From Thermoleophilia bacterium (GTDB lineage Bacteria > Actinomycetota > Thermoleophilia > RBG-16-64-13), in NCBI GenBank assembly GCA_026415615.1, contig JAOAGT010000002.1:448545-512544 (forward strand): a DNA stretch of 64,000 nucleotides, written 5' to 3'. The position numbers and the translations under genes are program-made. The notes below the pieces were generated by a model. The model was given only the letters and a program-made list of their open reading frames with translations, searched no databases and was not told the DNA's origin. Of this stretch, positions 9,744 through 29,253 are shown piece after piece. Within the stretch, counting starts at the first letter, position 1, and each line of letters opens with the position of its first letter.

Positions 9744-11111
9744 TCACTGCCCCGGCCACGGTGGCTTCGGGTAAATGGGTTTAGCTGTCCGCTTTGGCCC
9801 TGGGTCTATTACCTCGATCACCCCGTTTTGCCACTGGCCGATGAAGCCAGCGTAACAATCGCGGGCAAGAAGCTGGTTCTCAAACCAAGTATCTCCCAGC
9901 ACAGTCTGGAAATGCTCAGTCTTTAGGACCTCAGCCACTTTCTTGTTGTCCAAAGTGCCGGCCTTTTCGATAGCTTGCTTCAACATGTCAAGCGCAGCCA
10001 CAAAGTAGGCATAGCCGTAGTAGTTCATGTTGGCTTCGGTTCCGACTCTTTGCAGCAGCTTGTCGTGGAGTTGAGCAAGAGCAGGTGAGCTATGCACGCT
10101 CCAGACTCCATAGCCGCAGACCCCCTCCACCACTTTGTAGCCTTGTTCTGGTCCTTTGTCGCCTCCCATGGCAAACGGGAAAGCGCCAAAGGTTGCTCCG
10201 GGGCCCATTACCAGCATGCGCGGGTTATAGCCCAGTTGCATCATCTGGGCCACCATCGGGAAGTTCTGATCTGGGTAGCAGGGTACGAAGAAGCAGTCAG
10301 GATCAGCCTGCTGCACCTTTCGTAGTATCTGAGTGAAGTCTGCGGTGTTGGCAGGAATTGCCTCGTCATAAAGCAGCTTGATTCCCGCGTTCTTGGCCTC
10401 CTGGCGCATAACCTCGGAGTACTCTAGCCCGTGGAGGTCATCGAGATACACCATAGCTACGCTCTTAACTCCCACTTCCTTGAATATATCGATGAGGGTT
10501 GGGATGTCGTAGTGATTTGAATAGCTGAGCAAGCCAAAGAACATCGGCAAGTCGGGCAGCACCTCTTCAATGCTCTTGGCCCCTGCTTCCCCCGAGATGA
10601 GCAGATAACCGTGGGAGTTCGCCACATTCGCGGCTGCGAAGACAAATGCTGTACTTGCGGGAGAAAGGATGAAGTCCACCTTGTCCTCGACCATAAGCTT
10701 CTCAAGGAGCCGCATGCAGGTGTCCATATCGCTCTGGTCGTCGTAGACTTTCATCTCGATGGGGAGTTTCTTGCCATACTCAGCTACGTAAATGCCGCCT
10801 TCGGCATTGACCTCTTCTACCCACATCTTATAGATGACACCCAAAGCATTTTGCTCGAAGAAGCTTAGTGGTCCAGAGATGGGACGGGCGGCTCCGATGA
10901 CTATCTTGTCTTTTCCGCCCAGAGTGGTGGCAGTAGAAGTTTCTGTACTAGGAGCAGCAGTAGTCGTAGGTCCGGATGTGGTCGAAGGTCCGGCAGTTGT
11001 GCTGGGTGCTGCCGTTGTAGTTGTCTCCTTCTCGCCACAAGCAGCAACCAGCAAGGCGACCGCGGCGAGTATGCATACAACGGCCAGAATTCGTAAGTGT
11101 TTAGATCTCAT
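9744..11111 (-). CDS. ABC-type substrate-binding lipoprotein, Leu/Ile/Val-binding (type 1 PBP) family
   Basis: 455 aa. Lipobox LLVAACG and a Thr/Ala/Pro/Ser linker. IVIGAARPISGPLSFFE... is typical of Peripla_BP_6. RBS GAGGGGGA. No permease or ATPase gene nearby. Confidence 0.8.
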   Translation of the reverse strand: MRSKHLRILAVVCILAAVALLVAACGEKETTTTAAPSTTAGPSTTSGPTTTAAPSTETSTATTLGGKDKIVIGAARPISGPLSFFEQNALGVIYKMWVEEVNAEGGIYVAEYGKKLPIEMKVYDDQSDMDTCMRLLEKLMVEDKVDFILSPASTAFVFAAANVANSHGYLLISGEAGAKSIEEVLPDLPMFFGLLSYSNHYDIPTLIDIFKEVGVKSVAMVYLDDLHGLEYSEVMRQEAKNAGIKLLYDEAIPANTADFTQILRKVQQADPDCFFVPCYPDQNFPMVAQMMQLGYNPRMLVMGPGATFGAFPFAMGGDKGPEQGYKVVEGVCGYGVWSVHSSPALAQLHDKLLQRVGTEANMNYYGYAYFVAALDMLKQAIEKAGTLDNKKVAEVLKTEHFQTVLGDTWFENQLLARDCYAGFIGQWQNGVIEVIDPGPKRTAKPIYPKPPWPGQ

Positions 11112-11284
11112 TTTTTATTCATCCCCCTCTCTTGCCTGTGCTGTCAGGAACGCACACGTTGCAGAATACAAACGCTAAACCGGATAAGCAATGCCTAGGG
11201 GCTACCGTGACCTGATGAGCAGGTGCTGATCCCCAGCACTGAAAAACCCCGCCCAGGCTTTTCTAAAGGTTAAATGGTGCGACG

Positions 11285-12025
11285 CTAATACTTGTCTGGA
11301 GCCGCACCGGGGGCCACACCGGGAGGAGGCGTCTGTATCGGTCTGCCGGTAACCGGATGAGAGCAGTGAAAAGGCAGAACCTCGTGCTCTGGCCAGCGGA
11401 GCGGCATTTGGTCGGCTAGTTCATCCGGACCATAAGGATCCTCGGGGTATGTGGTAGTGAGCAACGGTACAAAGTTAGGCGGCGCGAAAGCCCATCCATT
11501 CTCAAAAGTGCTAAACCATACCGGCCGATAGTCAAGCTTCTTGATCCGCCAGATGCCGTCGCGCTTGACGTAGACATTTTCATAGAGCGCCCCTTCCCAC
11601 CACTGTCGCGAGATGGTGGTGGGAGAGGGGTTGCGTTCGTAATGAGTGCCCGCCTGCATCAGAAGACGAAACCGGCCCCACGCTGTCTGCCGGTCGGGGG
11701 CGACGTCGATGACGTCCTGCATCATGGGGTGGTCAAGCAAGAAGCCGAACACAGGGCCATTCTTGCCGTTGGTGAACTGCTCGCGAAATCGCCCGCAGTA
11801 GAGACGGCGCGCACCTTCCTTGCCTCGGTAAATACCGCCGAAAAAATGAACTTCGCAATCGTCGTCGTAGCAATCCACGGCCTCGTCGTACATGCATTTG
11901 TCGATGAAGTAGCCGTAGAGATGCTGAAGCCGGCGAATTGCTTGTATGTCCTCAACCACCCCCAGGCGGTATTCGAGTTCTCTTACTCGCTCGCTAAGCT
12001 TCTCAAGCTCTGCAACCGGATCCAT
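11285..12025 (-). CDS. SnoaL-like / NTF2-fold protein (SnoaL_4-type)
   Basis: 246 aa. LEYRLGVVEDIQAIRRLQHLYGYFIDKCMYDEAVDCY..D is the typical N-terminus of SnoaL_4 proteins. RBS GGTGGGGGGG. Confidence 0.65.
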   Translation of the reverse strand: MDPVAELEKLSERVRELEYRLGVVEDIQAIRRLQHLYGYFIDKCMYDEAVDCYDDDCEVHFFGGIYRGKEGARRLYCGRFREQFTNGKNGPVFGFLLDHPMMQDVIDVAPDRQTAWGRFRLLMQAGTHYERNPSPTTISRQWWEGALYENVYVKRDGIWRIKKLDYRPVWFSTFENGWAFAPPNFVPLLTTTYPEDPYGPDELADQMPLRWPEHEVLPFHCSHPVTGRPIQTPPPGVAPGAAPDKY

Positions 12026-12066
12026 CTCGGCCCCCCCACCATTTGACTAGCTTGCTCCTCGATACT

Positions 12067-13092
12067 TCAGCTTGCTCCCCGGTACTTCTCAACACCCACC
12101 CCAATAGGCTGGGACATCAAAAAGAAAACTTGCTTTCTTATGTCTCTGATGATCAAAGGTCCCTGACTTACGTTTGGGGGGATATAGGCGAAGAAACTCT
12201 TGGTAATCACGTGCTTCTCGCCCCCAATCCAGAGCTCGACCTCAGCGCAAAGGTCCGTGATGTCCTCGTAGTTAAGACCCAGCATAGCCAGGGAGGTGCC
12301 GTGAGGAACGGCGTGCTCGTCCATGATCACCAACTCCGCCCTTGTCTCTTTGGTGGGCAGATACCATCTGGTGTCACAGCCAAACTCAGCATCAGGGATC
12401 ACGGTCTCGTCAATATAAGCAGCAGGACGAACGTATTCGGGGTCAAGGGGACGCATGTATTCTGGGCGCTTCACATCCGGAGGCGTGCCGAATACTACAT
12501 ACCGGGCGTATTTGGACTCGGCAGGGTCCACGTGTCTGGCCACTGGCGGCTCTTTCTGTTCCTCCTCTGCCTGTTTGGTTTTTTCGTCTTTCTCCCGTGT
12601 GTAGACCCCGCCTGGCCCCGAAGTCCAATGCACGGTCGGGCGGGAGAAATGATGGCCGGTCACCCCTCCTGAGAACACTGGCATATGAGGGAGCCCGGCT
12701 GGTACGTAGGCTACCCAACTGCTTGGGAGGGGAATAATTTCGTCACCCATCTGAATGGCTGTGGGGTCGGTTTTGCTCGGGTCGTCTGGATCGGTTCCCC
12801 ACCAAGAAAGCAGTTCGGGAAAGTCATGGACATGCGGAAACATGGTGGGTGTCTGGTAGCCCAGCTTGGCCAGGTCTTCCCAGGTTACCTGATTGGGATA
12901 GTCAGGAGGCCAAATCCAGGTGGTTTCCCCATAGTAGGCGCCAGGGATCACGTCGTGGTCGATCCAGTGGACATGCTCCATGCTAATCCGCTTCCCTTGG
13001 GCAGCCAGTTGACGCCTCTGCTCTGGGGTGGGGCCGGGCAAGAGGTGCTGCTTCTGCAATGTGGTGCAAATGTACTTGTCAAACTGACCCAT
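12067..13092 (-). CDS. two-domain cupin-like protein (bicupin), uncharacterised subfamily
   Basis: 341 aa, RBS AAGGGAGGG. The N-domain has HVHDFPELLSWWGTDPDDP...YVPAGLPHMP (HxH..E......G and PxGxxH cupin motifs). The C-domain is a degenerate second barrel (AEVELWIGGEKHVI...YIPPNVSQGP). A Lys/Glu-rich linker joins them. Confidence 0.7.
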   Translation of the reverse strand: MGQFDKYICTTLQKQHLLPGPTPEQRRQLAAQGKRISMEHVHWIDHDVIPGAYYGETTWIWPPDYPNQVTWEDLAKLGYQTPTMFPHVHDFPELLSWWGTDPDDPSKTDPTAIQMGDEIIPLPSSWVAYVPAGLPHMPVFSGGVTGHHFSRPTVHWTSGPGGVYTREKDEKTKQAEEEQKEPPVARHVDPAESKYARYVVFGTPPDVKRPEYMRPLDPEYVRPAAYIDETVIPDAEFGCDTRWYLPTKETRAELVIMDEHAVPHGTSLAMLGLNYEDITDLCAEVELWIGGEKHVITKSFFAYIPPNVSQGPLIIRDIRKQVFFLMSQPIGVGVEKYRGAS

Positions 13093-13136: not shown

Positions 13137-13634
13137 CTATGATGTCCCTTTCCCGTAGGGGATTGTTTCAAAATTCATAACCTTGTGGGGATCGAAGTCC
13201 TTGTCTTGCTCAAAATACGGCTCTCTAGTTCCCTCCGGGCCAGCAAGCATGATCTCAACCTGAATTATGGGCTTGTCCACGCGAGTGACTTCTAACGGGC
13301 AGTGGGGAAGGCCAGGTGGGAGATGGACTAGCGTGGGCCGAGTGAATACGTGTTTTTCCATCTCGGGCCCAAAGTGGAGTACTACCTCAGCCTCAAATTC
13401 ATCGGGGTCTTCGGGATTTCCGCTGTACCAGGCCAGGAACTCGTGAAAATTGTGCGTGTGGCAGGGATTATCTCCTCGAAACGGCTTTCGCACAAACTGC
13501 AGGCCCATAGTAAGGGGAAACCCGAGCTGCTGGTGGCCGATCATAAGACCATCGAAGACTACCGTCCCATCTGACTTCATGCTGAGGCGCAAATGGGGCG
13601 GATGATGAATATATTGGTCATACTTTCCGCTCAT
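13137..13634 (-). CDS. cupin domain protein, same subfamily as 12067-13092 and 33431-33898
   Basis: CHTHNFHEFLAWYSGNPEDPDEFEAEVVLHFG...HLPPGLPHCP. ATG 13634 has GGAG 6 nt upstream. An alternative ATG at 13646 lies 3 nt after the SDR stop. Confidence 0.75.
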   Translation of the reverse strand: MSGKYDQYIHHPPHLRLSMKSDGTVVFDGLMIGHQQLGFPLTMGLQFVRKPFRGDNPCHTHNFHEFLAWYSGNPEDPDEFEAEVVLHFGPEMEKHVFTRPTLVHLPPGLPHCPLEVTRVDKPIIQVEIMLAGPEGTREPYFEQDKDFDPHKVMNFETIPYGKGTS

Positions 13635-13649
13635 GCTCGTCTCCATTGG

Positions 13650-14447
13650 TTACATTACCGATCCGCCTGAGACATGGAACACCTGTCCAGTCACATAGCT
13701 TGTAATGTCCGAGGCGAGGATCGCAATAGCATTTGCCATATCCCGCGCAGTGCCAAACCGGCCAAGCGGAAACTCACCCATGATGGCTGCCTGTCTTCTT
13801 TTCATCTCCTCTGGGGAAATGTTGGGGTCGGGCTCTCTTAGAATGGCTCCGAAGTTAGTGGGCACAGGACCGGGTGCCACACAGTTAACCCGAATTCCGT
13901 TTTTTCCTTCTACATACGCCAACTGCTTGGTGAACAAGTCGACGGCGTATTTGGAGATGGCGTACATACCCACCCCCATTTGGTACTGATGCGTGCTTCC
14001 CGAACCCACGTTCACGATGACCCCGTAGCCTCGTTCGCGCATATGAGGGACCACCGCCTGGGTGACGTTCATCGTGCCAATCAGGTTTAACTTAAGCTGC
14101 TTTTCCCAGACTGTAGGATCTTGCTTTTCGATGGGTACGTTGTCCTTGTGCAGGATAGCTCCGGCCACATTGCAGAGGATGTCAATCCGCCCAAATTCTT
14201 CGAGGACTTTCTGGACCATAGCTTTGACGGCCGCATTGTCAGTGATGTCGGCGCTTAGGGCAATACATCTTGGGCCCAAGCTGCGCACGGTTTCTGCGGT
14301 CTTGGCCAGGTTCTCCTCATCAATGTCTGTTACGGCGATGGCCTCGATCCCTTCCTCGGCCAACACCAAGGCCGTCTCTCTCCCTATCCCCACCTGGCTA
14401 GCTGCGCCCGTTACGAGGGCCACTTTGTTCTTGAAACCCAGATCCAT
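13650..14447 (-). CDS. short-chain dehydrogenase/reductase (SDR)
   Basis: 265 aa. TGAASQVGIG cofactor loop, NVAG and YAISKYAV (YxxxK). Confidence 0.9.
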   Translation of the reverse strand: MDLGFKNKVALVTGAASQVGIGRETALVLAEEGIEAIAVTDIDEENLAKTAETVRSLGPRCIALSADITDNAAVKAMVQKVLEEFGRIDILCNVAGAILHKDNVPIEKQDPTVWEKQLKLNLIGTMNVTQAVVPHMRERGYGVIVNVGSGSTHQYQMGVGMYAISKYAVDLFTKQLAYVEGKNGIRVNCVAPGPVPTNFGAILREPDPNISPEEMKRRQAAIMGEFPLGRFGTARDMANAIAILASDITSYVTGQVFHVSGGSVM

Positions 14448-14472: not shown

Positions 14473-16320
14473 TTATGGCCACAGCACTTGGGCTATGTCA
14501 TCGAGACCCAGCTCAAGCAGTTTGGCCTTGCTCGGCTTGCCCGTCTTCGTATCCCAGTCCATCTCGACCAGGTACTGATCGTAAATCTCCTCGTGCGTGA
14601 AGGTGATGCCGGCTCGTGGGCCCACGGTCTTGGGCGGTACGCCTCTCATCCTATCGGGGTAGAGGAAAGGCGTCTGGACACCCTCTCTAATGTTGAAGGC
14701 CTGCCTGACGTTGGTGATTCTTTCACCGGTCTTAAGCAGCTCGTCTGCGCTGATGTCCTCCCAGCCGGTCAGGGCTCTCAGAGCTTCGAGCAGTTGGTCC
14801 ACATGTGGATATGCTCCAATCACAAACTGGCAAAGCCCCATGGCGCTTGCTGCGTGCATGAAGTTGGTGCTGATCTTGTGGTAAAGGCCACGGCCGGTAC
14901 GTTGCTCGCGTGGTATATCGGGTATATTCAAGCCTGGTGGGTGTTGCCCGCCTCCCTGATTGTGTCTTCCGGGGGTGGGGTCGCAGCCATAACCAATGGC
15001 AAATCCCCAACCGCCACGAGGGTCGTGACCAGCAATCTCTTGACCGCCAATGTGCATGGCATATTTCTCTGCGCCCCGACCAATCTTCTCGGCCGCGCGC
15101 TTTACGCCGTCGGCGATGATGTCGCCAAAGCCCTCACGCTTGGCCATCTTCTCGACCATTGCCACGATAGCCTTGTGATTGCCCCAGGTCATCTCAAGGC
15201 CGTCTGTGTCCGCCTGAGAAAGCACGCCGTTTTCATAACACTCAATGGTGAAGGCGATGCAAGCACCCGCAGAGATGGTGTCTAGGCCATAACGATTGCA
15301 GATGTCGGCGGCCAGGATGATGGAGTCAAGGTTTGAGTTCAGGAGGTTGCTCCCCAGCATAGCAAGCGTCTCGTACTCGGGTTTATGAGCGCCCTCCTCA
15401 TACTTGTATTCGCCTGTTCCGGCTTTCATTAGGCCCCCGCAGGCAATGGGGCAACGCCAGCAGGCAAAGCGGCGCATCTGCTTTTCTAATACCGCTTGCC
15501 CTCCACAAGCTGCGTAGTCGGGAAGATCGACGGTAACCACACCGGCCCAATTCTTGGCTGGAGCGTCGTCGATTATGCAGCACATCTCGAATATGCCGGG
15601 GGTGCCGGTTTCGTGTAGCTGCTCAGCATGGCCGGTAAGGGCGGCCACGTGCTTTTTTCTGAGCTCTTTCATTAACTCGGGGTTGTAGGCCGGCGGGATG
15701 AGATTGCCCTGGGCCACGATAGCCTTTAGACGCTTGGAGCCCATGACCGCGCCGAGACCTGAACGGGCCGCGGCTCGGCCCTTATTGTTGATTACCCCGC
15801 TAATTAGAGCGAGCTTCTCGCTCGCTGGACCGATGCAGGCTACCTCCAGGTTCTTGCCGTGTTTGGCGCGCAAGATATCTTCAGTTTCTACAGTGTCTTT
15901 CCCCCAAATCTCTGCGGCGTCCAGGAGTTGGGCCTCCCCATTGTGAAGGTAAAGGTAGACCGGTTTCTCGGAAATTCCGGTGAAAAAGACGGCGTCGTAA
16001 CCAGCGAACTTAAGCTGCGGGCCAAAGCTCCCTCCCGAGTTGGCGTCCCCCCATCCTCCGGTGAGAGGAGATTTGCCGACTACTGTGTAGCGGGAGCCGC
16101 CGACTACGTCGGTGCCAGTGGTTATGCCGGTCACAAAACCCAACGTGGCGTCGGGGCCTAGGGGATCTACTCCTGGCTTTTGCCGGTCCCAGAGCACTCG
16201 CGCGCCTAGCCCGTATCCGCCCAGGTATTTGCGGGCGGCCTGTTCGTCGAAAGTATCTACGGTTATCTCGTGGGTTGTAAGATCCACCCAGAGGATTTTC
16301 TCCATAGCTCCAAAAGCCAA
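14473..16320 (-). CDS. aor: aldehyde:ferredoxin oxidoreductase family (tungstopterin) enzyme
   Basis: 615 aa, TTG start after AAGGAGGT. N-terminal ILWVDLT...YLGGYGLG...GPLTG...GGWGDAN. [4Fe-4S] ligands CWRCPIAC plus GLCQF. GLDTIS pterin motif. Confidence 0.9.
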   Translation of the reverse strand: MAFGAMEKILWVDLTTHEITVDTFDEQAARKYLGGYGLGARVLWDRQKPGVDPLGPDATLGFVTGITTGTDVVGGSRYTVVGKSPLTGGWGDANSGGSFGPQLKFAGYDAVFFTGISEKPVYLYLHNGEAQLLDAAEIWGKDTVETEDILRAKHGKNLEVACIGPASEKLALISGVINNKGRAAARSGLGAVMGSKRLKAIVAQGNLIPPAYNPELMKELRKKHVAALTGHAEQLHETGTPGIFEMCCIIDDAPAKNWAGVVTVDLPDYAACGGQAVLEKQMRRFACWRCPIACGGLMKAGTGEYKYEEGAHKPEYETLAMLGSNLLNSNLDSIILAADICNRYGLDTISAGACIAFTIECYENGVLSQADTDGLEMTWGNHKAIVAMVEKMAKREGFGDIIADGVKRAAEKIGRGAEKYAMHIGGQEIAGHDPRGGWGFAIGYGCDPTPGRHNQGGGQHPPGLNIPDIPREQRTGRGLYHKISTNFMHAASAMGLCQFVIGAYPHVDQLLEALRALTGWEDISADELLKTGERITNVRQAFNIREGVQTPFLYPDRMRGVPPKTVGPRAGITFTHEEIYDQYLVEMDWDTKTGKPSKAKLLELGLDDIAQVLWP

Positions 16321-16398: not shown

Positions 16399-17715
16399 TT
16401 ACTTGCCGGTCACACTGGGAAGCCATGTCGCTAGCCCCGGGATAAGGAACAGGAGCACTACCATCAGCAGCCCGAGGGCAAAGAACGGCATGGAAGAACG
16501 AAACACCTGCCCCAGGGTAGCATGTGGTGGTGCTATAGCCTTCATAGTGTAAACATCCAGTCCAAACGGCGGAGATATCAGACCAAGCTGGATGTTAAGG
16601 AGAGAAACGACCCCGTACCAGATCAGATCGTACCCGAGGGCCTTAGCCAGCGGGAAGAAGATTGGCACCGTGATCATAACGATGCTGGCCGGATCCATGA
16701 ACATGCCGAGGAAGATAAGAATCACTTGAGTAGCGATGATTATGTAGATGGGGGCAATGTTGGCGCCTGTGGCCATATCGATCAGCTTTTGAATGGCCCC
16801 GGTGGTGGCCAGGATGCGGCTGAAGCTAATTGAGCCCACCACAATGAACATAACCATGACGGTGACGCGTACGCAGCTCATGGCGGATTTCGTTACCGTT
16901 TTCCAGCTTAACTGTCGGTAGAAAGCCGCCAGGACAAAGCAGGCTAACACGCCTAGAGCCGCTGCCTCACTCGGGGTGGCCACACCCAGGTATATGCTTC
17001 CGATCACCGCCAGAATGACAATGCCGATTGGGAGGATGTGGAATGTAAACGTGCGAAGCTTGTCTGTGAGGGAGACCTTTTCCACCTCGTAGGTGGGGGC
17101 AAGCGAAGGATCAAGTTTGCAACGTATCATGATGTAGAGGGCAAAGAGAATGGCCAGAAGCACACCGGGGATGATAATGGCCATGAGCAGCTTCCCTACT
17201 GAAATTTGCCCGATGGCTCCCAAAAAGACGGCAAGCGCGCTCGGTGGGATCAGAATGGCTAGGGTCCCGCTGGTGACGATGGGACCGTAAATCATAGCTG
17301 GTTTGTATCCTCGCGCTTCCATTTCGGGTACTAGTACCCGTCCAAGGATGCCAATCGATCCTCCACTGATGCCAATCATCGTCCCCAGAAGGACGCCGGA
17401 CCCTACGGCGAGTAGGCTTAAGCGGCCGGGCACCTTGCCTAGGAGCTTGTCTACCGCGCCCACTATTCGTGCGCCTGCTCCCGAAGAGAAGATGACGTCT
17501 CCCATCAGCACAAAAAGCGGGATGGGTAAAAACGCATAGTTTGCTACCGCGCTGTAAAAGCTCATTGCCAGCTGATCAAGACCCGGCGCCCCGCCCCAAA
17601 ACAGGACAGAACCAATGATGCACGTGAAGGTGAAAGCGAAACATATGGGCATGCCAGTCATCATGATGACAATGAGGCAACCAAACATGATAAGCAGTGA
17701 CGCCAACCATTCCAT
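16399..17715 (-). CDS. TRAP transporter large permease (DctM family)
   Basis: 438 aa polytopic membrane protein with a typical DctM N-terminus, directly after DctQ (9-nt gap). RBS AGGAGG. Confidence 0.9.
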   Translation of the reverse strand: MEWLASLLIMFGCLIVIMMTGMPICFAFTFTCIIGSVLFWGGAPGLDQLAMSFYSAVANYAFLPIPLFVLMGDVIFSSGAGARIVGAVDKLLGKVPGRLSLLAVGSGVLLGTMIGISGGSIGILGRVLVPEMEARGYKPAMIYGPIVTSGTLAILIPPSALAVFLGAIGQISVGKLLMAIIIPGVLLAILFALYIMIRCKLDPSLAPTYEVEKVSLTDKLRTFTFHILPIGIVILAVIGSIYLGVATPSEAAALGVLACFVLAAFYRQLSWKTVTKSAMSCVRVTVMVMFIVVGSISFSRILATTGAIQKLIDMATGANIAPIYIIIATQVILIFLGMFMDPASIVMITVPIFFPLAKALGYDLIWYGVVSLLNIQLGLISPPFGLDVYTMKAIAPPHATLGQVFRSSMPFFALGLLMVVLLFLIPGLATWLPSVTGK

Positions 17716-19908: not shown

Positions 19909-19971
19909 CAGCGTTCTTACCAGGGCAAGATGCTTCCCTCGGTACTGGGAATGAAAGGCGTGACACACAAC

Positions 19972-22123: not shown

Positions 22124-22858
22124 ATGGACCTCAAGTTGAAGGATAAAGTTGCGCTCGTTACAGGAGCAGGGAGTCCCATAGGCTATGGCAGGGCAATTGC
22201 TCTCACCCTGGCCGAAGAGGGCTGTCGAGTTGCCTGTGCTGACCTACGACTTGACTGGGCAGAGGAGACCGCTGCCCTAATCAGAGAGGCAGGCGGCGAA
22301 GCCTTCGCAGTCAAGGTTGACGTGACCGACATGGCCCAGGTGGAGGCCATGGTGGAGGCGGTTGTTGCCCGATACGGGCGGATCGACATTCTCGTTAACA
22401 ACGCTGGCAAAAGCAGCATCGACAAACCTTTCATGGAAAAGACCCGGGCAGACTGGGATCTCGATATTCAGGTGAATTTGTATGGCCAAATGAACGTGGC
22501 GCGCGCAGTGATTCCTCACATGGCCAGGCAAGGCTATGGGCGCATCATTAACACTTCCGGCGGGCAGGGCTTGCCGACCGTATCCACTTACGGAGCAGCC
22601 AAAGCAGGGGTGGAAGCATTTACACATTCGTTGGCCATGGAGGTTGCCTCCTTGGGGATCATCGTAAACGCCATTGCCCCGGGGCTGGGGGAGACCGGCC
22701 TGATTTCGGCCAGCGAAGAACACAAAGAGGGGTATCGGCGTATGTCGGCCCTAAAACGCCTTTGCACTCCAGCCGACGTGGCACCTGCGGTGGCGTTTCT
22801 AGCTTCGGATGTTTGTAGCTACATGGTTGGGCAGTGCCTCAGGTTGAGTACCCACTAG
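22124..22858 (+). CDS. short-chain dehydrogenase/reductase (SDR)
   Basis: 244 aa. TGAGSPIGYG, NNAG and YGAAKAGV. Confidence 0.9.
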   Translation: MDLKLKDKVALVTGAGSPIGYGRAIALTLAEEGCRVACADLRLDWAEETAALIREAGGEAFAVKVDVTDMAQVEAMVEAVVARYGRIDILVNNAGKSSIDKPFMEKTRADWDLDIQVNLYGQMNVARAVIPHMARQGYGRIINTSGGQGLPTVSTYGAAKAGVEAFTHSLAMEVASLGIIVNAIAPGLGETGLISASEEHKEGYRRMSALKRLCTPADVAPAVAFLASDVCSYMVGQCLRLSTH

Positions 22859-22873: not shown

Positions 22874-23095
22874 ATGGCCATACGTCACTTTAGTCGTGAC
22901 GATTGCACGGGATGCGGGATATGTGTCGCTGCGTGTCCCATGGATGTGCTTCGTCTGGATGAGGAAGCGCAGAAGGCAACCGTAAGCTATCCCGACGACT
23001 GCATCGCCTGCTGGGGTTGCGAGTCGTTCTGTCCGCAGGGTTGTTTCGATATTTCTCCCGAACGGGCCCGCGGGGAGCTACCCGCTCCTTACTGA
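22874..23095 (+). CDS. 2x[4Fe-4S] ferredoxin
   Basis: 73 aa. CTGCGICVAACP and CIACWGCESFCP. Confidence 0.9.
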   Translation: MAIRHFSRDDCTGCGICVAACPMDVLRLDEEAQKATVSYPDDCIACWGCESFCPQGCFDISPERARGELPAPY

Positions 23096-23133
23096 GTCTC
23101 GCGGAGTAACAAAGGCGAGTGGGAAGGAAAGAC

Positions 23134-24849
23134 ATGAGAGGCTGGGATCAAACGCCGGTTAGGATTGCTGCCGATGTGCTGGTGCTGGGAGCGGGCGGTG
23201 CTGGCATGTGTGCGGCGCTTAAAGCGCGGGAAATCGGCGCTGATGTTCTGATGGTAGACAAGTGCGGCATCGGCTACAACGGGCAGGTGCCTATCGGGGG
23301 CGGCATACTCGCGTACATTTACCCCTCCTACGTAGAGACGTGGGTTGAGAAAGTTACCCGCCAGAGCCATTTCTTCAACAACCAGGAATGGACGTATCTC
23401 TTTGGCCGCTCAATGGACCCAGTTACTACTGAGCTTGCGAAGCTAGGGCTCACATTCTTGCGGAAAGAGGGCGAGATCGAGATTCTAACCTGGGGTCCAA
23501 ATATCCATGTGACGCTATTTGACGCGCCCAAGTCCTTAGTGGCCCTAAAAAGAACAGCCGCCGCCCGGGGCGTGCGCATGATGGACAAGATTTTTGCTGT
23601 CGATCTGCTCAAGAAAGACGACCGTGTGGTAGGAGCGGTGGCCTTTGGGTTGGTAGATGGGCGGGTTTATGTTTTTGATGCCAAGGCAGTAATTGTTGCC
23701 ACCGGGAACTGCGGCTACCAGCATGAAAAAACTTACAGCTCCGTCCAAGGCGAGGGCCCAGCTATGGGTTATCGAGCGGGGGCCAAACTCACCAACGCCG
23801 AGTTCAACAGCATGTACGTGTGGGGAGCTAAGGTCCTTGGCAAGGAGTTAATGGGCATCCATTACTACCTGTATCTCGAGAACGCCCGGGGAGAAAAGAT
23901 TATGGGCAAGCACTATCCGGAGCTGATGGTAGGAAAGCATGCCGTCTACACCTTTGATCCTCGGGTTATTGACGCCATGTACAAAGAGGTCCAGGCTGGG
24001 CTAGGACCCATCTATCTAAACCTCACGGGGCTGAGCGAGGAAGAAATTGCAGGGCTTGCCGAAGACGTCGTGGAAGAACTCTCTCATCTTATGGCAAACG
24101 ACTCCATGCGTTTGCTTCGGGAAAAGGCCGGCATTGATCCCACGAAAGAGCGCATCGAAATGTGGCCTCGTCTGTTGTACACGGGGGGCGGCATGCTGGT
24201 GGACACAGAGTGTCGAACGACTGTCCCAGGTCTTTGGGCGGCGGGGGGAGCGTGCAGCACCTTGTGGACTAACGGCGGCGGTGGTCAGGGCGGTCTAGGG
24301 GTACAGAACGCCGCGGTTACTGGATTTGTCGCTGGGGAGAGTGCAGCCAAATGGGCGGCGGAGACAACGCTTGTGCGCGCCGATGATGCCCATGTTGAGC
24401 AAGTTGTGGGGCGGATTATTGAGCCGCTTGTGCGGGAAGGGGCGGGCGACCCGTACGAGGTCACCTACCGAGTACATGAAGCAATAGTTCCCATGAAGTA
24501 CAACCGCATCCGAGAGGCTACTAGGATGCGTGAGGCACTGGGGATCTTGGCGGATGCGCGCGAAAAACTGTCTCGTATAAGCGTCCGCAATTTCCACGAT
24601 CTAGCCCGTTATCACTCAGCAGAAAGCATGCTGATGGCGGCGGAGTTTACCTACCAGGCTGCTTTAATGCGCCAGGAGAGCAGAAGCCAGCACTATAGAG
24701 AAGATTTCCCCGCGCGAGACGACGCAAATTGGCTTAAGTGGATCACGATCGAAAAGGGGGCAAACGGCCCCGAGCTTGGTGTTGTACCCGTGCCCTTGGA
24801 GAAGTACCCGCTCAAACCAGACTGGTGGCCAGCATTGAGCGGGAATTAG
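23134..24849 (+). CDS. FAD-dependent oxidoreductase, fumarate reductase/succinate dehydrogenase flavoprotein-like (FAD_binding_2)
   Basis: DVLVLGAGGAGMCAALKA dinucleotide fold. Late GLWAAGGA motif. ATG 23134 after GGGAAGGAAAG (the ORF-track GTG 23119 is also possible). Confidence 0.8.
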   Translation: MRGWDQTPVRIAADVLVLGAGGAGMCAALKAREIGADVLMVDKCGIGYNGQVPIGGGILAYIYPSYVETWVEKVTRQSHFFNNQEWTYLFGRSMDPVTTELAKLGLTFLRKEGEIEILTWGPNIHVTLFDAPKSLVALKRTAAARGVRMMDKIFAVDLLKKDDRVVGAVAFGLVDGRVYVFDAKAVIVATGNCGYQHEKTYSSVQGEGPAMGYRAGAKLTNAEFNSMYVWGAKVLGKELMGIHYYLYLENARGEKIMGKHYPELMVGKHAVYTFDPRVIDAMYKEVQAGLGPIYLNLTGLSEEEIAGLAEDVVEELSHLMANDSMRLLREKAGIDPTKERIEMWPRLLYTGGGMLVDTECRTTVPGLWAAGGACSTLWTNGGGGQGGLGVQNAAVTGFVAGESAAKWAAETTLVRADDAHVEQVVGRIIEPLVREGAGDPYEVTYRVHEAIVPMKYNRIREATRMREALGILADAREKLSRISVRNFHDLARYHSAESMLMAAEFTYQAALMRQESRSQHYREDFPARDDANWLKWITIEKGANGPELGVVPVPLEKYPLKPDWWPALSGN

Positions 24850-24900: not shown

Positions 24901-26367
24901 ATGGTAAGCAAAGAAAGACTGGCAGAGATAGTAGGGGCTGCGAATGTCAGCAGCGAGCCGGATGTTCTTGAGCAGTACGCCAGGGACGTGAGTTTTGTCA
25001 ATCATACAAGACCGGCGTACGTGGTTAAGCCCCATACCGCCCAGGAGGTCAAGGACCTTGTCAAACTGGCCAACGAGAGCCGTACGCCTCTGGTGCCAGT
25101 GAGCTCGGGCCCACCGCACTTTCGGGGAGATACGGTGCCCACAGCGGGCGGGGCGGTGGTGGTAGACCTGAGTGAGATGAAACGCATCGTGTTTGTGGAT
25201 CGCCCGCGCAGAGTGGCCATGGTTGAGCCAGGCGTGACCTTTGGAGAACTCATTCCGGCTGCCACCAAGGAAGGGATTAGGCTAAACATGCCTCTCTTGC
25301 CTAGAACGACCAAGACAGTCGTGGGCAGCATGTTAGAGAGGGAACCTGTGGTCATGCCCAAGTATCAGTGGGACATCTCCGATCCCTTGGCGTGCGTTGA
25401 GGTAATCTTCGGCACGGGTGACGACTTCCGCACGGGCCAGGCCGCTGGACCCGGCACCATCGAAGAGCAGTGGCAGGTCGGGGGAGTGCAGAAAGCCCCC
25501 TACGGGCCTCACATTACCGCGTGGCATAGGCTCATTCAGGGAGCTCAGGGAACCATCGGAATCGTGACCTGGGCCTCTTTGCGCTGTGAGCTGCTGCCTC
25601 GGTTACAGGAGCCTTACGTCGTAGCAAGTGCGCAGCTGGGACCTTTGGTGGAGATGGCAGCCTGGTTGATTCGGCTAAGGATGGCCAACGAGTGCTTCAT
25701 TTTGTCGAATGCCAACCTGGCTGCGATCTTTGCCGAAGACTGGCCAAACGATTACGTCAAGCTAAAAGCCTCTCTGCCCTCTTGGACATTGTTCTACGTT
25801 CTGGCCGGCTACGAGTACTTCCCCGAAGAGAGGGTGGCGTCATATCAGAAGCAAGTCGTATCTCTTTGTCAGCGCCTAGCTCTGGAGCCGCTGCGGGCGG
25901 TGGGCGGACTTTCTGCGCGCAGCATCATGAAAGCTGTGCAGAACGTGTGCCCCGAACCCTACTGGAAGCTCCGCTACAAAGGCGCCTCAGAGGACGTGTT
26001 CTTCCTTACCACCAACGACAAGGTGGAAGGATTTGTAAGTACGATGCAGGCTCTTGCTGCCGAGGTAGGGTACGCTGCCTCTGACTTAGGAGTCTATGTC
26101 CAGCCAGTGGTGCAAGGTACGGCTTGTCACGTAGAGTTCAACCTCTTCTACGATCCAGGTGACAGCAAAGAAGTCGAGCGGACTAGATGTCTTGCCGGCA
26201 TTGCCACGAAAGCGTTCTTGGATGATGGCGCCTTCTTCTCTCGTCCATACGGCGAGTATGCCCGGGACATCATGAATCGCGATGCTGCGTCGCTAGATGT
26301 GCTTAAGAAGCTGAAGGGGATCTTTGATCCCAACAACATCATGAACCCGGGCAAGCTTTGCTTCTGA
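24901..26367 (+). CDS. FAD-linked oxidase (FAD_binding_4; GlcD / D-lactate dehydrogenase-like)
   Basis: 488 aa, RBS AAAGGAGG. PHTAQEVKDLVKLANESRTPLVPVSSG... and a C-terminal LKGIFDPNNIMNPGKL. Confidence 0.85.
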   Translation: MVSKERLAEIVGAANVSSEPDVLEQYARDVSFVNHTRPAYVVKPHTAQEVKDLVKLANESRTPLVPVSSGPPHFRGDTVPTAGGAVVVDLSEMKRIVFVDRPRRVAMVEPGVTFGELIPAATKEGIRLNMPLLPRTTKTVVGSMLEREPVVMPKYQWDISDPLACVEVIFGTGDDFRTGQAAGPGTIEEQWQVGGVQKAPYGPHITAWHRLIQGAQGTIGIVTWASLRCELLPRLQEPYVVASAQLGPLVEMAAWLIRLRMANECFILSNANLAAIFAEDWPNDYVKLKASLPSWTLFYVLAGYEYFPEERVASYQKQVVSLCQRLALEPLRAVGGLSARSIMKAVQNVCPEPYWKLRYKGASEDVFFLTTNDKVEGFVSTMQALAAEVGYAASDLGVYVQPVVQGTACHVEFNLFYDPGDSKEVERTRCLAGIATKAFLDDGAFFSRPYGEYARDIMNRDAASLDVLKKLKGIFDPNNIMNPGKLCF

Positions 26368-26429
26368 GCTTTGCTTCTGAGGCGAGGCCTGTTGGTGAGA
26401 CATTGGTCGTAGCAGAAGGAAGGAGCGAG

Positions 26430-27704
26430 ATGGCATTAGAAGATTACGCCGGTGACATGAACATGTGTTGCCGCTGCTCGGCATGCAAGTTCATACCACT
26501 GCAGATGATCAAAGGGTATAAGCATGCCTATGTGTGCCCCAGCATCTCCCGGTACAACTTCCACTTCTTCTCTGGCGGCGGCAGACTGAACCTGGGGGTG
26601 GCGGGGCTGGAGCAGGGGTTCAAATACACGCCCTGGTACCTCTCCAGTGTCTATAACTGTCAGCAATGCGGCGCCTGCGACGTGTCCTGCAAGTACGGCA
26701 TGGACATGGAGGTCCTGCTTCCCATCCAGGAGCTTCGCATCAAGGCAGTGGAAGACGGGCATGCGCATCCGGCTCTGGCGCGCGTGGTGGAGCGGATGAA
26801 CAAGACCGGGAGCATGGTCCCCATGGAAGGGGCAAGCCGTGGGGACTGGGCTGCGGACTTGGGCCTCAAAGACGCCACCCAAGAGAAGGTGGAGGTTCTC
26901 TACCACGTAGGGTGCCTGACCAGCTTTGATAAGGATATGCAGGCGGTGGCTCGGGCGACGGCCAAGGTACTTGGCGCGGCCGGGATTGACTTTGGCATCC
27001 TGGGCGATGCCGAGACCTGCTGTGGGGGGCGCGCCTACGAGATGGGCCACAAGAATGACTTCATGACTCAGGCCAAGAAGAGCATGGAGGTCATCCGGTC
27101 CACTGGGGCAAAATTCCTGGTCACGAGCTGCGCCGAGTGCTACCAGGCCTACAAGGTTCTCTACGATCGTTTTGGCCTACGGAATGATTCGGAGCTTAAG
27201 GTTCTCCATACCTCTCAGCTTCTAGACGAGGTGATAAGCCAGGGCAACCTCAAGCTAAGTGGCCGGGTCGATCTGTGTGTTACTTATCACGATCCTTGCC
27301 ATCTGGGCAGACTAGGAGAGCCCTGGATCCACTGGCAGGGTAAAAAAGTGCCGGGCGACCGCTTCATCTTTGACCCGCCGAAGCCTTACCGCCGCGGCAC
27401 TAACGGGGTATACGAGCCGCCGCGCCGGGTGCTAAAAAGCGTACCCGGGGTGATTCTCGAGGAGATGGACCGCATAAAGGAATACGCGTGGTGCGCTGGT
27501 TCGTGCGGTGGTGTTACCGACTCCAATCCGGAGTTTGCCGAATGGACCGCCGAGCAGCGTCTCGAAGAGGCGCTCTGCACAGGCGCGGAGGCGATTGTCT
27601 CGGCTACCCCGTGGGGCGAGAAGCTCCTGCGCGATGTCGCAAAGAAGAACGACGTGCAGCTCGAGGTTTATGACCTTGTTGAACTGGTCGCCCAGGCTAT
27701 CTAG
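26430..27704 (+). CDS. Fe-S oxidoreductase with two CCG domains (GlcF / heterodisulfide-reductase-D-like)
   Basis: ATG 26430 after GAAGGAAGGAG. CCRCSACKFIP and CQQCGACDVSC cluster motifs. CCGG...YHDPCHLGR CCG-domain signatures. Confidence 0.85.
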   Translation: MALEDYAGDMNMCCRCSACKFIPLQMIKGYKHAYVCPSISRYNFHFFSGGGRLNLGVAGLEQGFKYTPWYLSSVYNCQQCGACDVSCKYGMDMEVLLPIQELRIKAVEDGHAHPALARVVERMNKTGSMVPMEGASRGDWAADLGLKDATQEKVEVLYHVGCLTSFDKDMQAVARATAKVLGAAGIDFGILGDAETCCGGRAYEMGHKNDFMTQAKKSMEVIRSTGAKFLVTSCAECYQAYKVLYDRFGLRNDSELKVLHTSQLLDEVISQGNLKLSGRVDLCVTYHDPCHLGRLGEPWIHWQGKKVPGDRFIFDPPKPYRRGTNGVYEPPRRVLKSVPGVILEEMDRIKEYAWCAGSCGGVTDSNPEFAEWTAEQRLEEALCTGAEAIVSATPWGEKLLRDVAKKNDVQLEVYDLVELVAQAI

Positions 27705-27721
27705 GAAGGAGGTCGAAAGCC

Positions 27722-29212
27722 TTGGCACTTACTAAGGAAATGTATGAGGCGTTCGCAGGGGTAGTGGGGGAAGAGAATCTCTGCGACGATCCCGCCATGA
27801 TGGCTGCTTATTTCCGCACGGATTTTGCGGCGGTGGTGATGCCCAAGGACACTGCCGAAGTCCAAGCGGTCGTCAGATTGTGCAATAAGTTCAAGCTAAA
27901 GTTTAGGCCCATATGTACAGGCTGGACGGGAGTCTTCCAGCCGGGCAGCGTTCTGCTTGATCTGCGGCGGATGAACCGCATCATCGAGATCAACGAAAAG
28001 AACATGTATGCGGTAGTGGAGCCGTACGTGACTTCTGCCCAGCTGCAGGCTGAGCTGTTTAAGCGAGGGCTGAACACCAACATGAAGGGGGCAGGAGCCC
28101 AGTGTTCGGCCATGCTTCGGGGCCACGGACATCTCGATCAGTCGTGTGGCGCTGACGATCGCAATCACCTAGCTGTGGAGTGGGTGACTCCCGAGGGCGA
28201 GCTGGTCAAGATGGGATCCTGGGGCGCCATCGGTGAGTGGTTCTGTGGCGATGGGCCAGGCCCCTCTTTGCGCTCCCTTGTGTCCAGTGTGGTTCCGCCG
28301 AGCACCACTCCGGGCGTCTTCACCAAGGTGGCGATGAAGCTTTATCACTGGCCGGGGCCTGATAAGTACGCGCTGGAGGGCTACTCTCCCAAATATACGT
28401 TGCGGGAGTTTCCGCCCAACATGATGGCTCGGTACTACAGCTTCCCCACGCTTGAGAAGATGTGGCAGGCGGAGATTGCCATCGGCGAGGCGGAGATCGC
28501 TCTTGAGCTCATGGGCTTCAACGCGGCCATGGTGGCGGCGAATATCACCACCTGCAACGAAGAAGAAATGGCCATGTTTGAACGCCTCTCTAAGGAGGTG
28601 CAGGGGCCGGGCTTCTTTGTGATCATAGCTGGCGATTCTCCAGAAGACTTTGCCTACAAGAAAAAGGTCCTTGAGACTATCGTCAAGGAAAATGACGGGC
28701 AGTCGCTTAAGACAGTCGAAGATCCGGAGCTTGAGGGTATCCTGCTTACGCAGTGCACAAGAATCAGTGCATCAGTTCGGGAGACGTTCCGACCGGGTGG
28801 GTACTTCAAGTCGATTCCCATCATGGGTCAACGTGACCTTACTATTCGTTGGGCTGTAGGTGCTGGCAAGGCCAAGCTCCCGCTTATTGAGCAGGGTCTT
28901 ATTGCCGATGACGGTGGCGGATTCTTCGGCTGGGGAGTGGAGCACGGTCATCTCGGCAAGACGGAGATCTTCTGCAAGTTCAGTCCGCTTAATCCCGAGG
29001 CCTGGAAAGCGGTTAACAAGTGGCACCAGGAGCAGGTCCAGCGGGCGCTTGACGAAAAGTACTTTGCTCTCACCATGGGGCCGCAGGAAGAGATCGACAA
29101 GAAGGTTGGGCCCGCTCTCTCGAACTATCACTTGTGGTGGTACAAGGTGCTCGACGCCTTAGACCCCAACGGAGTGGTGCCTGACAAGGGCCTGAGCAAT
29201 CTTACGCCGTAG
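27722..29212 (+). CDS. FAD-linked oxidase-like protein (FAD_binding_4, GlcE-like position, divergent)
   Basis: 496 aa, TTG start after GGAAGGAGG. PKDTAEVQAVVRLCNKFKLKFRPICTGWTG... resembles the FAD_binding_4 N-terminus with a non-canonical Gly loop. Confidence 0.7.
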   Translation: MALTKEMYEAFAGVVGEENLCDDPAMMAAYFRTDFAAVVMPKDTAEVQAVVRLCNKFKLKFRPICTGWTGVFQPGSVLLDLRRMNRIIEINEKNMYAVVEPYVTSAQLQAELFKRGLNTNMKGAGAQCSAMLRGHGHLDQSCGADDRNHLAVEWVTPEGELVKMGSWGAIGEWFCGDGPGPSLRSLVSSVVPPSTTPGVFTKVAMKLYHWPGPDKYALEGYSPKYTLREFPPNMMARYYSFPTLEKMWQAEIAIGEAEIALELMGFNAAMVAANITTCNEEEMAMFERLSKEVQGPGFFVIIAGDSPEDFAYKKKVLETIVKENDGQSLKTVEDPELEGILLTQCTRISASVRETFRPGGYFKSIPIMGQRDLTIRWAVGAGKAKLPLIEQGLIADDGGGFFGWGVEHGHLGKTEIFCKFSPLNPEAWKAVNKWHQEQVQRALDEKYFALTMGPQEEIDKKVGPALSNYHLWWYKVLDALDPNGVVPDKGLSNLTP

Positions 29213-29217
29213 GGGGT

Positions 29218-29253
29218 GGGCGGGCGCAGGCCCTGCAGGGCCTGCGCCCGCCC
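29218..29253 (+). terminator. terminator hairpin ending the plus-strand operon
   Basis: Perfect 18-bp palindrome GGGCGGGCGCAGGCCCTG/CAGGGCCTGCGCCCGCCC followed by CCTTT. Confidence 0.75.

Follow-up and report, generated by a model that had tools for sequence, protein, structure and literature searches.

What does a 20-kb block of divergent catabolic genes in an uncultured actinomycete act on, and do its genes form a single unit? The question is raised by a stretch of 64,000 nucleotides from a Thermoleophilia bacterium (contig JAOAGT010000002.1, positions 448,545 to 512,544; hereafter the window), in which the block occupies positions 9744–29253. The original prediction, made from the letters alone, had described a pair of divergent operons centred on a TetR-family regulator gene and an oxygen-independent route for a phenolic or alicyclic acid via an aldehyde. 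Open reading frame (ORF) listing and Pfam scans of 9744–29253 confirmed 17 genes in two divergent series, and the predicted gene order, the divergent layout and two perfect palindromes were all found in place. From the centre outwards, the minus-strand series encodes a tripartite ATP-independent periplasmic (TRAP) transporter (DctP, DctQ, DctM), an aldehyde:ferredoxin oxidoreductase (AOR), a short-chain dehydrogenase/reductase (SDR1), a single-barrel cupin, a bicupin, an NTF2/SnoaL_4 protein and a LIV-type solute-binding protein, with gaps, counted from the 9744 side upward, of 173, 41, 44, 3, 25, 78, 9 and 185 bp. The plus-strand series encodes TetR, a UroD-like protein, SDR2, a ferredoxin, a fumarate-reductase-like flavoprotein and two FAD_binding_4 flavoproteins (FADox1 and FADox2) on either side of a CCG-type Fe-S protein. 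There is good support for these genes forming a single catabolic cluster that is co-regulated and acts on an imported carboxylate. The reading that we favour, tentatively and at somewhat less than even confidence, is a TetR-repressed cluster, spread among uncultured Actinomycetota, that would degrade a plant- or lignin-derived phenolic carboxylate of the 4-hydroxyphenyl or guaiacyl type using anaerobic-type enzymes.

Conservation and regulation of the two operons

An alignment of the bicupin family was scanned against one genome per species and yielded 80 loci, all of them in metagenome-assembled genomes (MAGs). They belong to Actinomycetota and, in many cases, to Dehalococcoidia, with a few from Desulfobacteraceae and Leptospirales. 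The window proteins were compared with these loci in a tblastn matrix, whose 10-kb flank ended at the ferredoxin gene. About 11 distinct Actinomycetota loci carried the genes for the SnoaL_4 protein, bicupin, cupin, SDR1, AOR and DctMQP and, divergently from them, those for TetR, the UroD-like protein, SDR2 and the ferredoxin, with protein identities to the window of 50–81%. Two other Actinomycetota MAGs showed the complete two-operon order, in loci retrieved around the flavoprotein gene (L083 and L084). Since the arrangement is conserved in other genomes, it is not due to chance. Both L083 and L084 turn to unrelated genes beyond FADox2, at the same point where the window has a palindrome (29218–29253); therefore, this palindrome was taken as the right-hand boundary of the cluster.

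The TetR-family regulator (TetR_N 1.3e-12) is encoded on the plus strand in a frame open from 19876/19972. Its start had been placed at 19972; orthologues of 208 aa in L084 and 212 aa in L083 instead indicate 20185 (MKPEQKK...) as the probable start of a gene ending at 20832, and the divergent intergenic region accordingly spans 19611–20184. This region contains a candidate TetR operator, CTACTAGCACACGCTACTAG (19840–19859), a pseudo-palindrome with CTACTAG cores 13 bp apart, in a conserved block at about 19829–19868. The dctP–tetR spacers of three genomes showed a mean column identity of 58%, and their sole invariant block was CTACTAGCACACGCTACTAGC. The operator-like element occurred with at most two mismatches in the dctP–tetR spacer of the syntenic Actinomycetota loci, and the only other matches in the 1.39 Mb of DNA scanned were weaker, three-mismatch sites in L003, L005, L006 and L009, where they lie between tetR and the UroD-like gene. 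The tetR–UroD-like spacer that holds this second CTACTAG-repeat site measures about 260–340 bp in L083 and L084; in the window the two genes are 4 bp apart and the second site is absent. The window as a whole has one copy of the element, against 0.23 matches expected.

TetR is thus predicted to bind the CTACTAG-repeat element, and this candidate operator is the best available evidence, drawn from sequence, that the two operons form one regulon. Together, the preserved synteny and a conserved operator-like site confined to the dctP–tetR spacer bear out the TetR-centred pair of divergent operons. We regard the cluster as a single unit because its full order recurs in L083 and L084 and part of it in about 11 distinct loci, because the operator-like element is invariant and cluster-specific, and because cupin paralogues occur in both operons of other MAGs. 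Specifically, an extra ORF of 136–138 aa lies between the UroD-like gene and SDR2 in L083 (8585–9001) and L084 (8565–8975), and also in L004, L005 and L009; paralogy to the single-barrel cupin was found for the L084 ORF and for its positional counterparts in L004, L005 and L009. The window does not have this ORF, its UroD-like gene and SDR2 being only 30 bp apart.

The two palindromes are the sole perfect ones within the 64-kb window. The one at 18323–18364, in the dctP–dctQ gap, has 20-bp arms that are 100% complementary (fold z = -5.1), and this intercistronic hairpin would probably attenuate read-through or stabilise the dctP transcript. The other, with 18-bp arms (fold z = -4.6), directly follows the last plus-strand gene. 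Both contain the core GGCCCTG/CAGGGCC and may represent a single family of GC-rich hairpins, with no additional copies of the palindromes in the window. Consensus scans for promoters and terminators returned nothing above chance, and Rfam gave no match in the cluster.

The left edge differs between loci, with the LIV-type binding protein in the window (9744–11111, minus strand; Peripla_BP_6-type, PF13458 6e-46) and EamA and OsmC genes in L001. Among the syntenic loci, tblastn found the LIV-type protein only in L072, at 49% identity; its PDB relatives are weak and bind urea or amino acids (6e-10). Because it is not conserved, is separated from the upstream gene by 173 bp and has no ABC permease or ATPase genes alongside, this orphan is accessory and lies outside the conserved unit. 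Neither its earlier inclusion in the cluster nor the analogy drawn with CouP was upheld. The cluster is flanked by genes at 7864–9591 and 29360–30883 (both plus strand) for large proteins with Methyltransf_11 domains, 40% identical to each other (2e-66), which the tblastn matrix of the syntenic loci did not detect beside the cluster in other MAGs. As these flanking genes are paralogous and absent from the other loci, the sequence suggests insertion of the 20-kb block between two tandem paralogues.

Homologies bearing on the substrate

The phenolic reading was drawn from three independent homologies, to LdpA, to methyltransferase I (MTI) and to the FAD domain of 4-phenol oxidases, and from the co-occurrence of the same activities with SDRs and aldehyde oxidation in the sphingomonad lignin-dimer pathways. 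The NTF2/SnoaL_4 protein (11285–12025, minus strand; PF13577 7.7e-24) is a homologue of the LdpA/PcfL gamma-formaldehyde lyases. It is about 50% identical to LdpA (PDB 8abv, 1.9e-56; 8abt, 3.8e-54), its residues 11–230 aligning to LdpA 26–247, and the similarity is full-length and includes the C-terminal arm. LdpA, which needs no cofactor, splits erythro-DGPD, a beta-1 lignin dimer, into lignostilbene and formaldehyde; mutagenesis showed Tyr35, Asp40, His97, Glu143 and Tyr147 to be essential, with His97–Asp40 serving as acid-base dyad, Tyr35 and Tyr147 holding the phenolate and Glu143, Tyr165 and Gln170 forming a triad (PMC9942872). The window protein keeps seven of the nine LdpA residues checked (Tyr35, Asp40, Tyr74, His97, Glu143, Tyr147 and Tyr165), and the same seven are kept in 10 of 12 aligned sequences. 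The dyad and the phenolate tyrosines correspond to H99, D42, Y37 and Y148 of the window protein and are present in 10–12 of the 12. PcfL, which acts on the carboxylated beta-5 dimer DC-C, keeps eight of 11 LdpA active-site residues (PMC11323797). LdpA and PcfL are the sole characterised members of the family, and both act on lignin dimers (PMC11323797; PMC12997858).

The UroD-like protein (20837–22093, plus strand; URO-D 1.4e-19, in the C-terminal half) was assigned to the corrinoid-dependent MTI group of the UroD superfamily. Its best PDB match is CdmB (9rui, 7e-38), with true UroD far behind (1.6e-4), and only residues 198–403 align; in the syntenic loci it is 65–72% identical. The MTI group includes CdmB and the aromatic O-demethylases MtvB, OdmB, VdmB and MtoB (PMC13222342). 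Of the phenolic or alicyclic acid first proposed, it is the phenolic part that gained support, from the LdpA homology (1.9e-56, with catalytic residues) and from this CdmB match. Some 40 kb from the cluster, the window encodes a stand-alone corrinoid protein (60881–61534, minus strand) with B12-binding_2 and B12-binding domains and a DxHxxG motif, near a formate/nitrite channel and a GntR/UTRA regulator (59946–60950 and 61592–62491, both minus strand). A formate–tetrahydrofolate (THF) ligase gene in the same C1 neighbourhood (about 62650–64000, plus strand) runs past the window end. This C1/THF module at 59946–64000 could serve the MTI-type methyltransferase of the cluster.

The third homology concerns FADox1 (24901–26367, plus strand; PF01565 1.9e-17). 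Its top 21 PDB matches are 4-phenol oxidases of the vanillyl-alcohol oxidase/p-cresol methylhydroxylase (VAO/PCMH) type (1e-20 to 2e-13, residues ~5–270; the best at 1e-20 to 1e-18), led by p-cresol methylhydroxylase, eugenol oxidase and vanillyl-alcohol oxidase, with D-lactate dehydrogenase and glycolate oxidase behind (1e-11 to 1e-10). The family is very large and uniform, with thousands of relatives of near-identical length. FADox2 (27722–29212, plus strand; PF01565 4.7e-20) is divergent, and its 32% identity to FADox1 is limited to the first ~126 aligned residues. The gene between them (26358–27704, plus strand) encodes an Fe-S protein with Fer4_8 and two TfrB/GlcF/HdrD-like CCG domains (CCG 1.3e-25; TfrB 2.9e-38, under all curated cutoffs); since its orthologues have 421–422 aa, its start is more likely at about 26430. 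This gene always lies between the two FAD_binding_4 genes, in L083, L084 and the Chloroflexota loci. Membership in GlcDEF was rejected, the GlcD scores being 52 and 44 bits (cutoff 568) and the GlcF score 25 bits (cutoff 333), so that only the architecture is similar. A possible parallel to the trio is the membrane complex of Geobacter PCMH, with two different alpha subunits and an Fe-S partner, on which a literature search was unproductive. In a Chloroflexota locus (L086, 5204–7769) the FADox1–CCG–FADox2 trio is divergent from MR_MLE (enolase superfamily) and MmgE/PrpD genes, and further upstream are genes for an SDR, a thiolase and a family III CoA-transferase; an enolase-superfamily family, perhaps a different one, is also a neighbour of the bicupin elsewhere.

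Upstream of the trio, a 73-aa 2×[4Fe-4S] ferredoxin (22874–23095, plus strand) with Fer4 matches and two CxxCxxCxxxCP motifs precedes the flavoprotein (23119–24849, plus strand; FAD_binding_2 8.6e-31, Succ_DH_flav_C 1e-17), and this direct adjacency was found throughout, including in Dehalococcoidales. The flavoprotein represents a distinct subfamily of the FrdA/SdhA/TfrA/AprA superfamily, about equidistant from SdhA/FrdA, TfrA and AprA. Its best PDB match, over the full length, is the AprA-like alpha subunit of a 3'-phosphoadenosine-5'-phosphosulfate reductase (8a8o, 3.9e-40), and it falls under every NCBIfam cutoff (top PRK08275, 201 of 587 bits). Membership in TfrAB and AprBA was likewise rejected on scores far under the family cutoffs. 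Homologues at 66–77% identity occur in Actinomycetota and Dehalococcoidales.

The AOR (14473–16320, minus strand; AFOR_N 8.8e-75, AFOR_C 7.2e-101) aligns with P. furiosus AOR from end to end (1aor, 2.8e-97), with formaldehyde:ferredoxin oxidoreductase at 1.1e-75 and with BamB over residues 8–422 only (4z3w, 3e-56), and is predicted to be a tungsten enzyme of the AOR clade; it is 66–76% identical in the syntenic loci. SDR1 (13650–14447, minus strand; adh_short_C2 1.9e-54) reached no curated NCBIfam cutoff. SDR2 (22124–22858, plus strand), also assigned by Pfam, is 40% identical to it, and the SDR family matches are generic, KduD among them. The three TRAP components are co-encoded: DctP (18459–19610, minus strand; PF03480 1.3e-28; NF037995 83.7 bits, cutoff 50), with an ATG start at 19610 and a low-complexity N-terminal linker, DctQ (17725–18273, minus strand; PF04290 8.4e-21) and DctM (16399–17715, minus strand; PF06808 2e-72; TIGR00786 292.9 bits, cutoff 268). 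A carboxylate substrate was proposed because of this TRAP system and because major facilitator superfamily (MFS), CitMHS or TRAP transporters stand next to the bicupin elsewhere.

The 341-aa bicupin (12067–13092, minus strand), which has the same sequence as a hypothetical protein recorded at NCBI for a Thermoleophilia MAG, belongs to an uncharacterised, tightly conserved family, and the 169-aa cupin (13137–13646, minus strand) is a paralogue of its domains (7e-08 and 4e-06 against the two bicupin halves by BLASTP). Neither protein had a Pfam or NCBIfam match even at E = 10 or a PDB sequence match. A confident structure model of the 341-aa protein showed a bicupin with a double-stranded beta-helix and an invariant HxHx3E...H site; both the fold and the cupin metal motifs G(x)5HxH(x)3-4E and PxGxxH are present. 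The cupin label given earlier therefore stood for the fold, on the bicupin model, and fell for sequence-family assignment, where Pfam, NCBIfam and the PDB were all blank. The predicted 3His-1Glu metal site lies in the N-terminal barrel, and the second barrel has no canonical metal ligands. Fold matches include quercetinase, gentisate-type dioxygenases, BacB and KduI. The 169-aa cupin has three invariant histidines (H63, H65 and H115), and 16 of 21 orthologues retain E69; loci of both Actinomycetota and Chloroflexota contain this protein alongside the bicupin. Judging from the model, the two proteins appear to represent a new cupin family, compact and highly conserved.

The neighbours of the bicupin were counted in 78 loci and were SDRs (20), AOR (11), LdpA-like proteins (11), TRAP genes (10), zinc-dependent alcohol dehydrogenases (9) and enolase-superfamily proteins (8); the small cupin and Dpp-type ABC, MFS or CitMHS transporters were also frequent. 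The co-occurrence of the bicupin with AOR and TRAP genes, proposed earlier as a check, was thus found in 11 and 10 of the 78 loci, respectively. In L074 the operon consists of bicupin, SDR, MR_MLE and cupin genes. Since its parts also occur separately elsewhere, the Actinomycetota cluster appears from gene content to be an assembly of modules each widespread in anaerobic Chloroflexota, and most hosts of these modules are Dehalococcoidia.

The anaerobic style of the cluster was deduced from the tungsten AOR, the ferredoxins, the CCG protein and the Dehalococcoidia hosts, and from the corrinoid protein and formate–THF ligase in the window. The anaerobic style described earlier was borne out by the enzyme types identified (tungsten AOR, ferredoxin, CCG Fe-S protein and corrinoid-type methyltransferase), and Pfam scans of the cluster proteins detected no domain of an oxygenase, a CoA ligase or a benzoyl-CoA reductase, as had been noted before.

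In the route that we propose, DctPQM would import the acid, and the two SDRs would oxidise, reduce or stereo-invert side-chain hydroxyls. The LdpA-like NTF2 lyase would eliminate the benzylic hydroxyl via a quinone methide and release formaldehyde, and the tungsten AOR would convert an aromatic aldehyde, formaldehyde or both to acids, passing electrons to ferredoxin. Aryl-methyl ether groups would be transferred by the MTI-type methyltransferase to a corrinoid protein encoded elsewhere, one such being 40 kb away. The ferredoxin–flavoprotein pair and the FADox1–CCG–FADox2 complex may serve in additional dehydrogenation or in reducing C=C bonds, and in directing electrons, and the cupin and bicupin, with their 3His-1Glu site, may contribute a metal-dependent step, perhaps isomerisation, decarboxylation or C-C cleavage. 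TetR would occupy the CTACTAG-repeat operator until the substrate or an intermediate frees both operons. We infer the order of these steps, the role of the cupins, the substrate, the oxygen independence and the aldehyde intermediate.

Other loci also bear signs of polyphenol metabolism. In L001 (15356–17058), EthD-like and DAPG_hydrolase-domain (2,4-diacetylphloroglucinol hydrolase) proteins are encoded a few kb past the SnoaL_4 genes, a further hint of polyphenol metabolism near the cluster. The window itself encodes, at 40736–44093 (minus strand), a molybdenum-bis(pyranopterin guanine dinucleotide) (Mo-bisPGD) enzyme with a 'pyrogallol hydroxytransferase large subunit-like' N-terminal domain, whose beta subunit has Fer4_11/CarboxypepD_reg. 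Nearby genes (44108–45331 and 45606–46490, minus strand; 46641–50180, plus strand) encode an acyl-CoA dehydrogenase, a LysR regulator, electron transfer flavoprotein (ETF) beta and alpha subunits and an ETF-quinone oxidoreductase, and the 40736–50180 region may be a second polyphenol-related locus. Beyond it (50837–54199, plus strand) come genes for a radical-SAM protein and then for a second Mo-bisPGD oxidoreductase, whose N-terminal domain is of the Fe4S4 type.

Alternative readings of the cluster

Several observations weigh against a phenolic substrate, the case for which consists of homology and gene neighbourhood only. LdpA Gln170, which contacts the C-alpha hydroxyl of the substrate, and His183, which contacts its second aromatic ring (PMC9942872), are replaced in the SnoaL-like family by Phe/Ile and Asn/Asp/Glu, respectively, so that motif II of LdpA is kept in its Glu and Tyr only. 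Domain scans found no corrinoid protein, methyltransferase II (MTII) or activase in the cluster or in L083 and L084. The likeness of FADox1 to 4-phenol oxidases is confined to the FAD domain, its cap domain being left unaligned by phmmer, and its AF2 model, built from 30 sequences, is poor (pLDDT 56.9) and too weak to define the substrate site, where VAO/PCMH enzymes have a phenolate-binding Tyr/Tyr/Arg triad. The best solved relative of DctP matches at 2e-22 only (4mnc) and gives no clue to the ligand. Moreover, the ferredoxin–flavoprotein pair stands alone in a Dehalococcoidales genome, and FADox1–CCG–FADox2 forms a stand-alone operon in Chloroflexota, once amid housekeeping genes; both may be general redox modules, not specific to this pathway. 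Finally, the bicupin gene often has no LdpA homologue beside it, being solitary or accompanied by genes for an SDR, an enolase-superfamily protein and MFS/CitMHS transporters, and such neighbourhoods would suit a sugar acid or an aliphatic substrate as well.

In the main rival, which we consider doubtful, the substrate would be a non-aromatic organic acid, whether a hydroxy-acid of aliphatic or alicyclic type or else a sugar acid or uronate. Together with an SDR, the bicupin would then act like the KduI/KduD or IolB isomerase–dehydrogenase pairs, the trio as a 2-hydroxy-acid dehydrogenase of GlcDEF type, the flavoprotein as a fumarate- or enoate-type reductase, and the SnoaL-like protein as a dehydratase or isomerase of a non-phenolic substrate. 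This would agree with the bicupin operons that contain SDR and MR_MLE genes beside MFS/CitMHS carboxylate transporters in Chloroflexota and some Actinomycetota, with the GlcDEF architecture of a trio that lies amid housekeeping genes or beside MR_MLE and PrpD-like genes, with the generic SDR matches, including KduD, and with the KduI/IolB/BacB-like fold of the bicupin. It is at odds, however, with the ~50% identity to LdpA and the retention of the phenolate tyrosines and the His-Asp dyad in the orthologues, with the placement of the UroD-like protein in the MTI group, and with FADox1 ranking 4-phenol oxidases first while GlcD (52 of 568 bits) and GlcF (25 of 333 bits) score far lower; moreover, the window cluster has no enolase-superfamily gene.

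Oxygen enters in a further alternative, which we regard as unlikely. Here the cluster would be a microaerobic, non-orthologous counterpart of the sphingomonad beta-1/beta-5 dimer pathway, with the cupins as non-haem metal dioxygenases that replace lignostilbene dioxygenase or a ring-cleavage enzyme after the LdpA-like lyase. Known pathways all cleave the LdpA/PcfL product by a dioxygenase and then oxidise the aldehydes (PMC11323797; PMC12997858); the 3His-1Glu site is typical of the quercetinase- and gentisate-type dioxygenases found among the fold matches, and the ETF and ETF-quinone oxidoreductase in the window imply a respiratory chain. Yet the cupin family occurs mainly in Dehalococcoidales MAGs and beside an oxygen-sensitive tungsten AOR, the non-oxidative cupins BacB and KduI use the same metal site, and the cluster contains no other oxygenase. 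An equally unlikely version of the phenolic reading dispenses with oxygen altogether and would make the cluster the first known to cleave C-C-linked lignin dimers (beta-1/beta-5 type), or diaryl compounds related to them, without O2. The LdpA-type lyase would yield a stilbene or quinone methide and formaldehyde; the cupin–bicupin pair and water-dependent 4-alkylphenol-type flavoproteins wired to the CCG protein would replace the O2-dependent lignostilbene dioxygenase; AOR would oxidise the aldehydes; and the corrinoid methyltransferase would feed methoxy groups into THF-linked C1 metabolism. Least probable, in our estimate, is a mosaic of independent modules (transporter, AOR–SDR–cupin, methyltransferase and two redox complexes) with unrelated functions and no single pathway. 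Every module does occur alone in other genomes, the location between 40%-identical paralogues is consistent with block insertion, and the left edge varies (LIV protein here, EamA and OsmC in L001). In contrast, the order is kept in about 11 loci at 50–81% protein identity despite diverged spacers, gaps are short or genes overlap, and a single regulator is accompanied by a cluster-specific operator-like site in the shared spacer, with a second site before the UroD-like gene in several MAGs.

Relation to known pathways and systems

The phenolic carboxylate reading bears on whether, and by whom, lignin-derived oligomers and methoxylated phenolics are degraded in anoxic settings, which matters for the carbon stored in peat, soils, aquifers and sediments. 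The lignin-dimer lyase was so far known from aerobic sphingomonads only; here, a homologue of it stands beside enzymes characteristic of anaerobes (tungsten AOR, ferredoxins, CCG protein, corrinoid-type methyltransferase). If the dimer version were true, widespread soil and sediment Actinomycetota and, through the common modules, Dehalococcoidia would take part in anoxic lignin turnover; should the substrate prove to be an ordinary organic acid, what is left is a catabolic operon that is new yet unremarkable. The cupin family and the candidate operator make the system directly testable.

The expectation that the cluster matches no characterised pathway held, as domain content excludes both the phloroglucinol and the benzoyl-CoA pathways. 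The anaerobic phloroglucinol pathway (PGR, DPGC, TfD, TAL) uses a cyclase-family hydrolase and a BKACE lyase, DPGC belonging to the isatin-hydrolase-like cyclase family and not to the cupins (PMC10470551); the cluster has neither a cyclase-family Mn-dependent DPGC nor a triacetate acetoacetate-lyase. For the benzoyl-CoA pathway, no AMP-binding or benzoyl-CoA reductase domains were present, and the AOR is not BamB-like. In the literature on Dehalococcoidia and anaerobes, no description of this enzyme combination was found. What is new is the cupin family and the unexpected LdpA homologue in an anaerobic-type setting; what is familiar is a repressor-controlled, TRAP-headed catabolic cluster.

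In having TRAP DctPQM at the head of a catabolic operon and a LIV-family protein near it, the cluster resembles the TarPQM/CouPSTU loci for aromatic-acid uptake in Rhodopseudomonas palustris (precedent cited in PMC5812351). It differs in that its binding proteins show no demonstrable relation to TarP and CouP, their solved relatives being distant, and in that the LIV protein is an orphan and non-conserved. Compared with the known bicupin enzymes OxdC, BacB/AerE, quercetin 2,3-dioxygenase and KduI, the bicupin is at most 15% identical and is not seen by the cupin Pfam models; it is partnered by a paralogous single cupin and belongs to a small family found in MAGs only. As in TfrAB/AprBA-type systems, the gene for a small 2×[4Fe-4S] subunit lies directly before that for an FrdA/AprA-like flavoprotein. 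GlcDEF and the Fe-S-linked D-lactate dehydrogenases likewise combine two FAD_binding_4 subunits with a CCG Fe-S subunit, whereas the gene order here is D-F-E-like, the second flavoprotein is divergent and FADox1 is closest to the 4-phenol oxidases. The UroD-superfamily MTI is homologous to those of the MtvB/OdmB/MtoB/CdmBCA systems, and a corrinoid protein and a formate–THF ligase lie within the same window; unlike in those systems, genes for a corrinoid protein, MTII and an activating enzyme do not adjoin the cluster's MTI gene, and only the C-terminal half of the methyltransferase aligns.

A close parallel in enzyme content is with the sphingomonad beta-1/beta-5 pathways, in which the lyase is accompanied by SDRs, aldehyde oxidation, O-demethylation and cresol-dehydrogenase-family enzymes (PMC12997858). 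Like those pathways (LdpA/PcfL with the SDRs LigD, LigL, LdpB and LdpC), the cluster has an LdpA homologue, two SDRs and an aldehyde-oxidising enzyme, together with an O-demethylase-family methyltransferase and cresol-dehydrogenase-family flavoproteins (cf. PinVW). In contrast, it has new cupins and no carotenoid-cleavage-type stilbene dioxygenase, a tungsten AOR in place of an NAD-dependent aldehyde dehydrogenase, a corrinoid-type MTI in place of the THF-dependent LigM and a CCG Fe-S protein in place of a cytochrome c partner, and LdpA Gln170 and His183 are replaced. Its hosts, moreover, are uncultured Actinomycetota, and its enzymes are of anaerobic type.

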